The notes under the pieces: generated by a model
What the model was told of the DNA's origin: nothing
The model's input: the letters and a program-made list of their open reading frames with translations, nothing else
Databases searched by the model: none
Made by a program: the position numbers and the translations under genes
Assembly: GCA_045862955.1 (NCBI GenBank)
Contig: BTVI01000020.1
Coordinates: 1-64,000, forward strand
DNA: 64,000 bases
Direction of reading: 5' to 3'
DNA from: Fimbriimonadales bacterium
GTDB lineage: Bacteria > Armatimonadota > Fimbriimonadia > Fimbriimonadales > JABRVX01
Shown: positions 15,508-52,516 of the stretch, in pieces
Position numbering within the stretch: position 1 is the stretch's first letter
Layout of the letters: each line of letters opens with the position of its first letter

Positions 15508-15605
15508 GGTAACCGCGCTGCGCTTCGAACTGACTGCAGAGAGCGCACACCGTTAGCGCACCTCGTTCGGAGCGGGTCGACAGGGCCCGAAACGCGGATG
15601 TCTGG

Positions 15606-16499
15606 CCTCCCGCCTTCGCGGGAATGACCGTAGAAGCCCGTCCACTGAAAAGTGTCCATGCCCCGGCCCGCGTCCACCGGACTACCGGCCCATCAAGCAC
15701 CGCGAACCCAAGGACCGCGCCGGGGCCTGACCACGCCCCCGGGATTCGATCTGAGCTTCGTCATGCTGAGCCTGTCGAAGCATGACCTCGCCGAGCGCAC
15801 TCCATTCCCCGGCCCGCGTCCGCCGGACTCCACCGGCCTATCAACCACCGCGAACCCAAGGACCGCGCCGGGGCAGGGTCGGGGGTGGCTGCGGGGGGCA
15901 TGCTTCGACAGGCTCAGCATGACGGGCTTCCGATAGTACCATGCGGCAGGCGGGGGCATGCTTCGACAGGCTCAGCATGACGGTTGCGGGTGGGCTGCAG
16001 GTGCTCCATGCCCCGGCCCGCGTCCGCCGGCCTCCACCGGCTTACCAAGCACCACGAACCCAAGGACCGCGCCGGGGCAGGGTCGGGGGTGGCTGCGGGG
16101 GGCATGCTTCGACAAGCTCAGCATGACGGGCTTCCGATGGTACCATGCGGCAGGCGAGGCCATGCTTCGACAGGCTCAGCATGACGGGCTTCCGATGGTA
16201 CCATGCGGCAGGCGAGGCCATGCTTCGACAGGCTCAGCATGACGGTTGCGGGTGGGCTGCAGGTGCTCTATGCCCCGGCCCGCGTCCGCCGGACTCCACC
16301 GGCTTATCAAGCACCGCGAACCCAAGGACCGCGCCGGGGCCTGACCACGCCCCCAGGATTCCATCTGAGCTTCGTCATGCTGAGCCTGTCGAAGCATGAC
16401 GGTTGCGGGTGGGCTGCAGGTGCTCCATGCCCCGGCCCGCGTCCGCCGGACCCCACCGGCTTACCAAGCACCACGAACCCAAGGACCGCGCCGGGGCAG
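15606..16499. repeat. Composite REP-like cluster between convergent genes
   Basis: About 7 copies of GTCATGCTGAGCCTGTCGAAGCATG (both strands), about 5 copies of GCCCCGGCCCGCGTCC...CCCAAGGACCGCGCCGGGGC, one CCCGCCTTCGCGGGAATGAC. Confidence 0.9.
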
Positions 16500-32722: not shown

Positions 32723-33492
32723 CTTCACATCCCTCACCTCACGCAGTTGCATAGCCTAGACCCTCAGCATGGCGCGGCAAAGGGCATGCTGTATGACCTC
32801 ACGCCTTTCCTATCTCTAACCACTTGCAAAGGATGGGTCACTAGCGACGTCATGCTGAGCCTGTCGAAGCATGAGACCGCCGACCGCACGTCCCCGCCTA
32901 GACGCCTCCATGCCCTGGTCGGCGCATGAGCCACCGTGCCCCGGCGCGGTCCTTAGGTCTGCAGTGCACGATAAGACGGTGGAGCCCGGCGGACGCGGCC
33001 CGGGGTATGCAATCCCCGTGTCGGTGCAGTTCCATGCCTAGACGTTTCGGATGCCGTCTGCCACCACGCTCTCGCCCAGCGGCTCCCCGAGCAGCCGAGC
33101 GTCGAGGCACCGAAAGCCAGGGGCTGGTGATGCCCCCCTCACCCCAACCCTCTCCCCCGCGAACGGGGGAGAGGGAGGGAGAGACTACCCCCCCGCTGCC
33201 CCGGCCCGCGTTCCATGCCTAGACGTTTCGGCTGTCGTCTGCCGCCAAGCCCTCGCCCAGCGACTCGCCGAGCAGCCGAACGTCGAGGCACCGAAAGCCA
33301 GGGGCTGGTAATGCCCCCCTCACCCCAACCCTCTCCCCCGCGAACGGGGGAGAGGGAGGGGAGATCCCATGCCTAGACGTTCCTGGCGTCAGCGGATGGT
33401 GATAGCACCCTCACCTCAGTCCTCTCCCTCTGAAGAGGGAGAGGAAGGTGATTCCCATGCCTAGACGTTTAATCCCGCGAAGGCGGGAATCG
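32723..33492. repeat. Composite REP-like cluster
   Basis: GTCATGCTGAG, CATGCCTAGACGTTTCGG, CCCTCACCCCAACCCTCTCCC and CCCGCGAAGGCGGGAATC modules; inverted relatives at 50.8-52.5 kb. Confidence 0.85.
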
Positions 33493-33528
33493 AGACGAGG
33501 GAGTTCCTCGGAACTGCGAGGACCCCAA

Positions 33529-49804: not shown

Positions 49805-50125
49805 ATGGACTACCTGCATCTACTCGACCCGACGGTGGGAGTCGAACCACCCGTGGACGGAATCCTCAGCCGTACGTTGCTGGACGACGAGTATGCCAAA
49901 GTGTTAGTGTTCGGATTCGGAGCGGGCCAGGAGCTCTCGGAGCACACCGCTTCCATGCCGGCCCTTCTCCAGTTCCTGCAGGGCGAGGCCGACCTGACAT
50001 TGGGCAAGGACGCGACTTCGGCAGTCGCCGGTACCTGTGTGTACATGAGGCCCAACCTACCTCACAGCGTGCACGCCAAGACGCCTGTAGTGATGCTGTT
50101 AGTGTTGATGAAGCGGCCCACCTGA
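49805..50125 (+). CDS. Cupin domain protein
   Basis: GQELSEHT...PHSVHA. Confidence 0.8.
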   Translation: MDYLHLLDPTVGVEPPVDGILSRTLLDDEYAKVLVFGFGAGQELSEHTASMPALLQFLQGEADLTLGKDATSAVAGTCVYMRPNLPHSVHAKTPVVMLLVLMKRPT

Positions 50126-50150: not shown

Positions 50151-50789
50151 GATTCGATTCCCGCCTTCGCGGGGATGACGTAAATCAGACATCGGGCCAC
50201 TCGCCGTCATACATTGCATTCCCGTCATCGCGGGGATGACGGCGCTCTTCGTGCTATGGGTGGCGAGCAACTCACTGCATCCCCGCCTTCGCGTCGCTGA
50301 CGTTGGAGCATCCTACGCCGCGCGGTCACGTTGCACTCCATCCCCGCCTTCACGGGGATGACGTCCGAGCGCTCGATAGAGTCCTTCGCCAAGGCACTGC
50401 ATCCCCGCCTTCGCGTGGATGACATCGGCAACCTGCGGTCCGGCCATGTCTATTACACTGCGTCCCCGCCTCCGCGGGGATGACGCAGTACGTCACGGTC
50501 CTGCCACGGTCCCCGTCACTGCATCCCCGCCTCCGCGGGGATGACGTTCTCGCCCTTTCCTTGGCCATAGCCACGGCCACTGCATCCCCGCCTCCGCGGG
50601 GATGACGGCGCTCTTCGTGCTATGGGTGGCGAGCAACTCACTGCATCCCCGCCTTCGCGTCGCTGACGTTGGAGCATCCTACGCCGCGCGGTCACGTTGC
50701 ACTCCATCCCCGCCTTCGCGGGGATGACGTTCTCGCCCCTTCCTTGGCCATAGCCACGGCCACTGCATCCCCGCCTCCGCGGGGATGAC
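50151..50789 (-). CRISPR. Orphan type I-E-like array: 11 repeats (29 nt, consensus GTCATCCCCGCG(G/A)AGGCGGGGATGCAGTG) and 10 spacers of exactly 32 nt
   Basis: Repeats start (+ strand) at 50151, 50212, 50273, 50334, 50395, 50456, 50517, 50578, 50639, 50700, 50761: exact 61-nt period; CCCCGC-N4-GCGGGG hairpin; no cas genes in window. Confidence 0.7.
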
Positions 50790-50811
50790 ACTTACCAGCC
50801 CTTTTGCGGTC

Positions 50812-52516
50812 TCCATGCCCCCGGCCCGGGTCCGCCGACCAGCAGCTGCCCACGGCATGGCTCGAACCCAAGGACCGCGCCGGGGCACGGCGGCTCATAC
50901 GCGGGCCAGGGCAGCGGGGGGGTAGTGTCTCTCCCTCCCTCTCCCCCGTTCGCGGGGGAGAGGGTTGGGGTGAGGGGGGCATCACCAGCCCCTGGCTTTC
51001 GGCGCCTCGACGTTCGGCTGCTCGGGGGGTCGCTGGGCGAGAGCGTGGCGGCAGAAGGCAGCCGAAACGTCTAGGCATGGAAAGGGGTGAGGGATATGAG
51101 ACGGATATGCACGTGCCCTTTGCCAGTGGTGCGGGCATACAACATGCCCTTTGCCGCGTCATGCTGAATGTCTAGGCATGGAACTACGTGAGGTGAGGGA
51201 TGTGAGGATGCTCTTTGTCACGTCATGCTGAGCCTGTCGAAGCATGCGCTCGCTGCTGCCAAGCGGTGGACGCGGGCCAGGGCAGCGGGGGGTGTCTCCC
51301 TCCCTCTCCCCCGTTCCCGGGGGAGAGGGTTGGGGTGAGGGGGGCATCACCAGCCCCTGGCTTTCGGCGCCTCGACGTTCGGCTGCTCGGGAGGTCGCTG
51401 GGCGAGAGCTTGGTGGCTAACGACAGCCGAAACGTCTAGGCATGGGATCTCCCCTCCCTCTCCCCCGTTCCCGGGGGAGAGGGTTGGGGTGAGGGGGGCA
51501 TCACCAGCCCTTGGGTTTCGGTGCCTCGACGTTCGGCTGCTCGGGGGGTCGCTGGGCGAGAGCTTGGTGGCAGACGGCAGCCGAAACGTCTAGGCATGGA
51601 AAAACGTCTAGGCGGGGACGTGCGGCCGGCGGTCTCATGCTTCGACAGGCTCAGCTGACGTAACCAGTGACCCATCATCTGCGGTTGATGAGGGCATACA
51701 AACGTCGGTGCCTCGACGTTCGGCTGCTCGGGGGGTCGCTGGGTGGGAGCGTGGCGGCAGAAGGCAGCCGAAACGTCTAGGCATGGACCCTCACCACTGC
51801 AAGGGGTGAGGGATATGAGAGGGATATGCACGTGCCCTTTGCCACGTCATGCTGAGCTTGTCGAAGCATGCATCGGTGAGCGCCAGAGGCAGCTACTGAA
51901 TTCGAGAACGTGCGGCCGGCGGTCCCATGCTTCGACAGGCTCAGCATGACGTCGCTAGTGACCCTTCCTTCGCAAGTGGTGAGAGCATACAACATGCCCT
52001 TTGCCGCGTCATGCTGAACGTCTAGGCATGGAACTGCGTGAGGTGAGGGATGTGAGGATGCTCTTTGTCACGTCATGCTGAGCCTGTCGAAGCATGCACT
52101 CGCTGCTGCCAAGCGGTGGACGCGGGCCGGGGCATATACAAACGTCTGGGGATGGAATATGGGAACGCGGGCCGGGGCAGCTGGGGGTAGTCTCTCCCTC
52201 CCTCTCCCCCGTTCCCGGGGGAGAGGGTTGGGGTGAGGGGGGGCATCACCAGCCCCTGGCTTTGGGTGCCTCGACGTTCGGCTGCTCGGAGAGCCGCTGG
52301 ACGAGAGCGTGGTGGCAGACGGCAGCCGAAACGTCTAGGCATGGAACCTCACCACTGCAAGGGGTGAGGGATATGAAAGCCTTGAGGGATATGCACGTGC
52401 CCTTTGCCACGTCATGCTGAGCTTGTCGAAGCATGCATCGGTGAGCGCCAGAGGCACCTACTGAATTCGGGAACGTGCGGCCGGCGGTCCCATGCTTCGA
52501 CAGGTTCAGCATGACG
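50812..52516. repeat. Large composite REP-like cluster
   Basis: Multiple GTCATGCTGAG(C/T)TGTCGAAGCATG, AAACGTCTAGGCATGG and CCCTCTCCCCC...GGGTTGGGGTGAGGG modules, with internal duplications. Confidence 0.9.

Follow-up and report, generated by a model that had tools for sequence, protein, structure and literature searches.

New CRISPR arrays can arise away from any existing locus. According to papers citing Nivala, Shipman and Church (2018), off-target integration by the Cas1-Cas2 of Escherichia coli spawns new arrays, and off-target acquisition is one of three origins proposed for isolated arrays (PMC13142298, citing Shmakov 2020). Here we describe an array at positions 50151 to 50789 of a 64,000-nucleotide (nt) stretch of DNA, hereafter called the window, on contig C20 (BTVI01000020.1) of a Fimbriimonadales bacterium whose assembly (GCA_045862955.1) comprises 3.36 Mb in 94 contigs, with 62.7% G+C and 97.55% completeness. 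The array consists of a repetitive extragenic palindrome (REP) present 11 times. We consider it most likely, with moderate confidence, that it was built by an off-target type I-E Cas1-Cas2 acting at a REP copy and was later reshuffled by recombination, and we predict that it is non-functional.

Two lines of earlier work bear directly on such an array. In type I-E arrays of E. coli, the last base of the repeat is the G of the AAG protospacer-adjacent motif (PAM), which enters together with the 33-bp fragment (PMC10011333). The REPs of the CGTC-1 family, in turn, consist of a CGTC tag (or TGTC or CCTC), a stem of 8 bp that begins with AT, a loop of 4 nt and a 3-nt tail near CCA, and include the dRS3 element of Neisseria. 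Members of the CGTC families typically occur as singletons and head-to-head dimers, head-to-tail dimers being described as 'negligible', and the CGTC-1 elements of Neisseria form large clusters. For the CGTC REP superfamily as a whole, neither a dedicated enzyme nor a linked transposase is known according to Di Nocera, De Gregorio and Rocco (2013, PMC3733652), from which all these features are taken.

The array in the window, with its 11 repeats, is real. A repeat finder placed in-register copies with a 61-nt start-to-start step nine times, which make 11 repeats when each is read as 29 nt, and Tandem Repeats Finder (TRF) concurs; the repeats start at 50151+61i with a constant period, and when the minus strand is read, ten of ten spacers are 32 nt long. 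The original prediction, made by a model from the sequence, had counted 11 repeats, each of 29 nt, and 10 spacers, each of 32 nt and seven of them distinct, and these figures are confirmed. Lettered by kind, the spacers run A' B C A D E F B C G, where S2 equals S8, S3 equals S9 and S1 differs from S4 by one base. The mean identity among the seven kinds is 9.0 of 32 positions, against 8.47 +/- 0.53 in shuffles (P=0.17). Since the spacers are no more alike than shuffled sequences and the repeats recur at an exact period, the array is neither a product of chance nor a diverged tandem repeat. Its parts are the following.

50151-50789, minus strand: the whole array, R1-S1-...-S10-R11, with the leader side at 50789 and the trailer side at 50151
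50761-50789, minus strand: R1, the leader-proximal repeat, identical to the consensus, to R4 and to R5, with a strong hairpin (-19.4 kcal/mol)
50729-50760, minus strand: S1, a copy of S4 (50546-50577) with 1 mismatch
50607-50728, minus strand: the block R2-S2-R3-S3, a duplicate of R8-S8-R9-S9 (50241-50362) with 1 difference in 122 nt
50212-50240, minus strand: R10, a degenerate repeat with GGGAAT as in the REPs, and with altered loop and 3' arm (-8.0 kcal/mol)
50151-50179, minus strand: R11, the terminal repeat and most REP-like copy, whose 29th base is C (G in R1 to R10)

The consensus repeat, GTCATCCCCGCGGAGGCGGGGATGCAGTG, is intact only in R1, R4 and R5, the remaining eight repeats carrying 1 to 6 changes. 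These variants are polar. GGGAAT occurs in R10 and R11; a GAAG-type loop occurs in R7 to R11 (mutated to GATG in R10) and also in R2 and R3, which are duplicates of R8 and R9; and the loop GGAG occurs in R1 and in R4 to R6. Polarity of this kind is as expected if the leader-proximal copy templates each new copy. Counted by reading the sequences, R11 agrees with the common REP form of the genome at 24 of 27 positions and with R1 at 23 of 29. It had been predicted that the most degenerate repeats lie at the trailer end, and this holds for R10 and R11; the worst repeat, however, is R9, whose duplicate R3 stands near the leader end, the 5' stem arm being broken in both. The duplicated block (R2-S2-R3-S3 and R8-S8-R9-S9) was also detected as a repeat family, D2, with 96% identity over 153 nt, and is covered by Logan contigs at about twofold depth. 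As S1, S2 and S3 match S4, S8 and S9, respectively, the three leader-proximal spacers are all duplicates of older ones.

Judged by its sequence, the array repeat is a CGTC-1-type REP. The stem ATCCCCGC/GCGGGGAT encloses the loop GGAG and is followed by the tail GCA, where dispersed copies have CCA. With up to 3 mismatches allowed, the pattern GTCATYCCCGCGNNGGCGGGRAT finds 58 sites on 17 contigs of the genome, and the common REP form there is GTCATTCCCGCG(A/C)AGGCGGGAATCCAG. Two solo members of the family lie in the window, at the places (near 15607-15628 and 33473-33490) where dispersed palindromes resembling the repeat had been noticed beforehand:

15602-15628, minus strand: solo REP of the same family as the array repeat (GTCATTCCCGCGAAGGCGGGAGGCCAG), core at 15608
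33468-33494, plus strand: a second solo member of this family, its tag degenerate (...TTTAATCCCGCGAAGGCGGGAATCGAG), core at 33473

The window repeat thus shares with the CGTC-1 family the tag, the 8-bp stem starting with AT, the 4-nt loop and the short tail, and the family habit of dispersed intergenic copies, often in inverted pairs, with no transposase linked. It differs from that family in the tail, and in that its copies stand head-to-tail at a fixed 61 nt with unique inserts between them. Because the array is purely head-to-tail, whereas head-to-tail arrangements are negligible in the CGTC family, its arrangement is not the REP family's own doing. The dRS3 mosaic arrays of Neisseria (Neisseria intergenic mosaic elements, NIME) differ as well, since there the REPs are interleaved with other repeat families, whereas the spacers in the window are genome-unique and all of 32 nt. 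In a genome collection, the 23-nt core of the repeat is present at no fewer than 121 loci (at least 121) from many phyla, including Sphingomonas, Azospirillum, Ramlibacter and Dyella; among the 80 loci listed it is solitary, with at most two matches per locus, far apart. A sister species (G001) has 46 REP copies, and one of these differs from the full 29-nt window repeat at no more than 3 positions.

The same genome encodes a type I-E system of its own. Whether cas genes and sister arrays exist elsewhere in the genome was a question raised by the original prediction, and both were found: a type I-E operon with a different repeat, and four further REP arrays, to which we return below. Profile searches identified cse1, cse2, cas7e, cas5e, cas6e, cas1e and cas2e, followed by an array, on contig C72 (1443-7645, locus L147), with scores of 372.9 bits for Cas1e and 78.7 bits for Cas2e. 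This resident array occupies C72 1-1429, and more of it lies on C51 1-1546. Its repeat is AGACGCCCCACGCATGTGGGGATGAACCG, the step from one repeat to the next is 61 nt in 45 of 47 cases, and the 29th base of its 48 repeats is G in 46 and T in 2. The resident unit has the same 28+33 geometry as the window array, built on a different repeat. Matches to Cas1 (PF01867) and Cas6e (PF08798) occur in the whole assembly on C9 and C72 only. For cas3 (TIGR01587 core), this 97.55%-complete assembly gave only sub-threshold matches, on C62 and C16; none of these matches is on C20, in agreement with the predicted lack of cas genes in the window. The candidate on C62, although the best TIGR01587 match, was identified as RecG. 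The C72 system may adapt without interfering, or its cas3 may be unassembled.

Contigs from public runs contain, between resident-type repeats, spacers that are absent from C72 and C51, one of which was recognised by eye as spacer 17 of C51. As these additional spacers may stem from the unassembled middle of the array, ongoing adaptation is not shown; nothing from run X9 could be placed on the resident array. No CRISPR repeat family of Rfam matched either the window array or the resident one, so the Rfam library is unable to type the repeat. A second CRISPR locus, at C9 53324-58094, has a Cas1 (274.9 bits to PF01867) beside a 40-repeat array with a period of 75-82 nt, and no REP pairs at that spacing were seen.

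The 29th base of the REP-array repeats carries what appears to be a trace of integration. It is G before 12 of the 16 distinct spacers (11 of 14 in the source genome, 1 of 2 in the sister species) and in none of the seven terminal repeats (Fisher P=0.0013). This count leaves out the REP arrays on C7 because their repeats are too degenerate for confident placing; when they are added, the figures become 13 of 18 and 0 of 8 (P=0.0016). The resident array varies at just this base as well. We take this pattern to be the PAM-derived G that marks type I-E integration. The base preceding GTC is C in nine of the ten spacer-preceded units and T in one. The hairpin layout of the repeat is 5-6-4-6-8, and its dyad centre falls between positions 13 and 14, as it does in the resident repeat. 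On reading the sequences, the duplicated block extends unequally from the dyad centre, by 13 nt towards the GTCAT and by 15 nt plus the G in the other direction, and the resident repeat is asymmetric in the same way. Boundaries drawn on the opposite strand are off by 3 nt, which settles the orientation even though the REP is nearly palindromic; the strand and repeat boundaries that had been proposed are correct.

The 61-nt spacing recurs elsewhere in the genome. Among same-orientation REP neighbours within 200 nt of each other, 20 of 29 pairs are 61 nt apart, ten of them in the window and ten outside it, on C6, C12 and C71. The other spacings are 39 nt (6 pairs), 63, 114 and 122, with the 39-nt spacing representing plain REP tandems on C91 and C36. 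As a control, 24 further families of repeat k-mers, the largest of 562 copies, gave a total of 3 pairs at 61 nt. Outside the window the REPs form four further arrays on three contigs: one on C6 with one spacer, one on C12 with two spacers, and two back-to-back on C71; degenerate REP arrays are also present on C7. Each array has a private REP variant (...CCAAT on C6, GTCGTCCCCGCGC.GGCGGGGACCCAGA on C12, GTCATTCCCGCGCAGGCGGGAATCCAG on C71). As each repeats its own variant, the arrays point to independent duplication in place and not to fragments of one old array. At C71 8602-9173 (locus L149), a minus-strand array of seven repeats lies back to back with a plus-strand array of three repeats and two unique 32-nt spacers, each array occupying the would-be leader position of the other. 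In five other REP-carrying genomes, Cas1e was found in none, and four of the five had no head-to-tail pair within 46-76 nt. A phylum-wide scan found paired REP cores in 9 of 400 genomes besides the source, too few for a test of association with Cas1e.

With these data in mind, one may outline how the array would have come about. The integrase would probably be the one encoded on C72, and we propose that it accepted a REP as a target. According to this proposal, a REP copy downstream of a cupin gene resembled a type I-E repeat, having the same dyad geometry, closely enough to be used. Each integration would then have duplicated 28 bp of the REP and added a 33-bp fragment starting with a PAM-derived G. 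Growth would have been polar, so that changes arising in the leader-proximal copy (GGGAAT to GGGGAT, loop GAAG to GGAG) were passed to all newer repeats. As for the present order A'BC-ADEFBC-G, the simplest account is that repeats later exchanged unequally, so that ADEFBC was duplicated in tandem, and that DEF was then lost from the first of the two copies; point mutations would now be eroding the hairpins.

In this form the array best fits a 'neo-CRISPR'. As in the case of Nivala and colleagues (2018, as described in citing papers), a spacer-sized insert is flanked by a repeat-length duplication of ordinary genome away from the cas-adjacent array, the cell has a type I-E adaptation module, and repeated use of one site yields a new array. 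The case in the window differs in being natural and not the result of over-expression, and in that its target comes from a dispersed REP family, which offers many ready-made targets. Here, moreover, there are at least five arrays, one of which has 10 spacers and went on to duplication, deletion and decay.

The array also lies away from cas genes while a cas operon is located elsewhere in the genome, as with the isolated or orphan arrays considered by Shmakov and colleagues. The resident and window repeats are identical at just 17 of 29 bases, and the window repeat is a REP instead. Isolated arrays in the sense of Shmakov et al. are said, for the most part, to share their repeat with a cas-adjacent array, and the window array differs from them in this respect. 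In common with the resident array and with CRISPR-1 and CRISPR-2 of E. coli (PMC10011333), it has a 29-nt repeat, a 32-nt spacer, a hairpin with 5 nt before it at the 5' end and 8 nt after it at the 3' end, a last repeat base G that comes with the spacer, and a degenerate terminal repeat. Unlike these, it has no adjacent cas genes or recognisable leader, it contains duplicated spacers, only 3 of its 11 repeats are identical, and its stem is longer (9-10 pairs of REP type in the fold, against 6). The array resembles type I-E in construction and lacks three features of a functional locus: adjacency to cas genes, a repeat shared with a cas-adjacent array, and conservation of the repeat.

The orthologous site of the sister species was compared with the window. 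There, homology ends at the stop codon of the cupin gene, and a degenerate REP in the same orientation follows 21 nt after the stop (25 nt here), with no array; the intergenic DNA of the two is too diverged in alignment for a base-by-base reading of before and after. Logan contigs from four independent studies reproduce pieces of the array without difference, including the junction of R1 with its flank. The organism occurs in sludge and bioreactor samples, in 20 runs of 11 studies. Two loose contig ends in runs X5 and X9, at 50580 and 50612, possibly represent further junctions of the array repeat. Contigs of these two runs have S10 with 5 substitutions and R10 and S9 with one more each (50197-50263), and 0-1 differences in the adjacent 350 nt of the cupin gene; the changes are a local excess at the old end of the array.

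Several observations weigh against the origin that we favour. The C71 minus-strand array lacks the G mark (it has A and C), includes one 34-nt spacer, and holds one spacer six times (five identical copies and one with 1 change), so that plain tandem duplication contributes there. The sister species has two 61-nt REP pairs and yet no Cas1e match over the cut-off; the resident-type I-E repeat was likewise not found in it. Thiohalobacter thiocyanaticus (G502), the fifth of the other REP-carrying genomes, also has no Cas1e match, and has head-to-tail REP pairs at 61, 62, 51 and 51 nt, the first two being located as follows.

C1 724956-725030 and 1420391-1420466: head-to-tail REP pairs of G502 at 61 and 62 nt

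The pairs of these two species may be relics of lost systems; otherwise, the link to the resident type I-E system is weaker. That link is further strained by the low identity of the two repeats given above, and by the leaders, since that of the window array has no evident likeness to the resident one beyond the last three bases, AGT. The C12 locus in the sister species has no REP at all, hence there is no clean pair of before and after. The Logan contigs do not bridge every junction, so the order of the units rests on the metagenome-assembled genome. Lastly, as no protospacer was found in the searches described below, the foreign origin of the spacers is unproven.

The flanks of the array are as follows.

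49805-50125, plus strand: cupin-domain gene, ending 25 nt before R11; the trailer-side flank, downstream of sdhA/sdhB
50790-50905, no strand assigned: the leader-side flank, 24 nt of unique sequence and then a copy of another dispersed element (...GACCGCGCCGGGG... family)

Further repeat families (D3-D6) follow on the leader side at 50927-51500, where a cluster of repeats had been predicted. Between 50927 and 51600 there are 154-nt units, 94-95% identical, with a G-rich palindrome (CCCTCCCTCTCCCCCGTTC.CGGGGGAGAGGGTTGGGG); Logan contigs are 10 to 100 times deeper here than over the flanks, which indicates a high-copy dispersed element. The genome also contains a different and far more abundant palindromic repeat, the 14-mer CGTCATGCTGAGCC, in 562 copies, which forms many clusters in tandem, the copies being preferentially 57-58 nt apart (in the window, for example, at 107-524 and 16103-16245). 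A scan of the leader side, limited to sigma-70-type sites, detected no promoter of that kind, which may not be the promoter type of this host. The trinucleotide AGT stands just before the first repeat both at the resident array (C72, locus L147 1430-1433) and at the window array (50786-50792), and is absent at the four smaller REP arrays. This might account for the window array alone having grown long, and could easily be chance.

The best-surviving alternative, which we regard as unlikely, sees in the array the remains of another type I-E system, a second one now lost or foreign, whose cognate repeat happened to be REP-like; the array would have been built canonically beside cas genes since deleted, or would have been transferred from elsewhere. 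Type I-E geometry and the G mark would suit any type I-E system, the 61-nt pairs without Cas1e in the sister species suggest an older system in the genus, and loss of cas genes is one of the origins proposed for isolated arrays (PMC13142298). Genuine type I-E-type arrays with a very similar core do exist, as on a plasmid of Streptomyces sp. Mg1 (...GTCATCCCCGCGGGTGCGGGGAGCAG); that repeat, however, is oriented the other way in its match, and its boundaries are shifted by 3 nt. The original prediction had offered, as one of two possibilities, a true orphan type I-E array, and a standard locus using this repeat would be its natural source. None was found: no array with the window repeat turned up in 40 relatives, in the genome collection (among the 80 loci listed of at least 121) or in a metagenome collection. 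A scan of the metagenomes for repeat-32N-repeat had a sole match, which lies inside a protein-coding region with no repeat there and was set aside as chance. One lost system would not give the differing private REP variants of the four other arrays, and it is the terminal, oldest repeat that is nearest to the REPs. The flanks, too, are housekeeping genes (sdhA/B, cupin), in which neither a remnant of cas genes nor a mobile-element gene was seen.

The second possibility of the original prediction, a REP-built, guide-like array, is supported as to origin, by CGTC-1 membership and the four further REP arrays at 61 nt; function as guides found no support, with five of the 11 hairpins weakened or lost and no protospacer found. 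Strong hairpins (-15.4 to -19.9 kcal/mol) are retained by six repeats; R7, R10 and R11 have weakened ones, and R3 and R9 have lost theirs, folding no better than shuffled sequences do. Protospacers were sought with the whole array as query. Recurrence of the spacers as linkers throughout the genome, which had been named as a sign against a CRISPR function, was checked: the spacers recur nowhere else in their own genome, and no protospacer was found there. The same outcome was obtained with 50,697 phage records (best E=0.7), with 150 genomes of the order, and with 72,556 plasmid records, where the matches were of repeat type only (Azospirillum REPs, Streptomyces I-E arrays and a Photobacterium 157-nt tandem), so that the search for spacer targets among phages, plasmids and the host came back empty.

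Two of these plasmids deserve description. Plasmid pSMg1-2 of Streptomyces sp. Mg1 (locus L162 7468-9277) has 30 repeats with a 61-nt period, and the annotation shows no cas gene in the 9 kb around them; the repeat has the core GTCATCCCCGCGG in common with the window repeat, in the opposite (anti-canonical) orientation, and four consecutive spacers are identical. Plasmid pGJ3-1 of Photobacterium sp. GJ3 (locus L146 11000-12734) carries the same REP core in a 157-nt tandem, with 9 copies in the stretch read, which is a plain tandem and not CRISPR-like.

It is improbable, and somewhat more so than descent from a lost system, that the array works at present, whatever its origin: that it is transcribed and cut by the Cas6e of C72, the products entering Cascade and serving defence or gene regulation. 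The six strong hairpins would permit this, and the window and resident repeats have CCCC.C....G.GGGGATG (stem and 3' flank) in common. Isolated arrays can act in trans (PMC13142298), and the array is unchanged in contigs of the four studies. The same spacer adjoins the leader flank in all four; contigs drop rare variants, so this is weak evidence for a static array. Set against a working array are the five weakened or lost hairpins, the duplicate origin of all leader-proximal spacers, the failure to find protospacers in the own genome, phages, plasmids and genomes of the order, and the lack of a promoter-like site in the sigma-70-type scan of the leader side. The assembly, 97.55% complete, also yielded no cas3, so that interference with DNA may be absent, and the REP-type stem would run 3 pairs further, over the presumed cut site of Cas6e. 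The signature of function in small RNA would be CRISPR RNAs (crRNAs) of 61 nt with a ATGCAGTG 5' handle. Since hairpins are eroded, no promoter-like site and no protospacers were found, and the leader end may be static, we predict that the array is a decaying by-product with no present function.

An origin without Cas proteins, either by REP-specific amplification as in the dRS3 mosaics of Neisseria or by 61-nt tandem duplication with divergence of the spacer part, is very improbable: tandem REP clusters do abound in this genome (the same REP at 39 nt on C91 and C36, other families at 57-58 nt), spacers were evidently duplicated in the window and on C71, and the CGTC-1 elements of Neisseria form their large clusters, yet the spacers are unrelated and every one is exactly 32 nt, the period is that of the resident type I-E array and is specific to the CGTC REPs, G marks the repeats with non-G after the terminal ones, and head-to-tail dimers are both 'negligible' in CGTC families generally (PMC3733652) and missing within 46-76 nt from four of the five other REP-rich genomes.

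The mechanism itself is already known in principle from the experiments in E. coli. Compared with Nivala 2018, as reported in the citing papers, the novelty here lies in a substrate drawn from a dispersed REP superfamily and in the presence of several arrays in one genome. A literature search on REP-seeded arrays found nothing, the full texts of Nivala 2018 and Shmakov 2020 being outside the search, and the idea may still have been published. One may speculate further, though we hold this to be unlikely, that CGTC-type REPs are natural landing pads of type I-E integrases by virtue of the shared dyad geometry, so that arrays are continually born at them, with at least five such births, one grown to ten spacers, in the present genome, and that type I-E repeats with CCCCGC stems flanked by ATGAC/GTCAT are evolutionarily linked to the CGTC REPs, which lack a transposase, one having given rise to the other or having been spread by the other's machinery.

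The origin of new CRISPR arrays and repeat families is still largely inferred, and the laboratory precedent needed over-expressed Cas1-Cas2 of E. coli. In the genome described here, one wild bacterium appears to show a graded series, from solo REPs through units with one or two spacers to an array of 11 repeats, with the measurements of its own type I-E system and the PAM-derived G mark. For annotation, this would mean that an array without cas genes whose repeats are REP-like is to be read neither as a simple false positive nor as a sign of hidden Cas systems. It also points to a possible activity acting on the CGTC REPs, for which no dedicated enzyme is known (PMC3733652). If true, the graded series makes the birth of an array testable with one integrase and one 27-nt palindrome.

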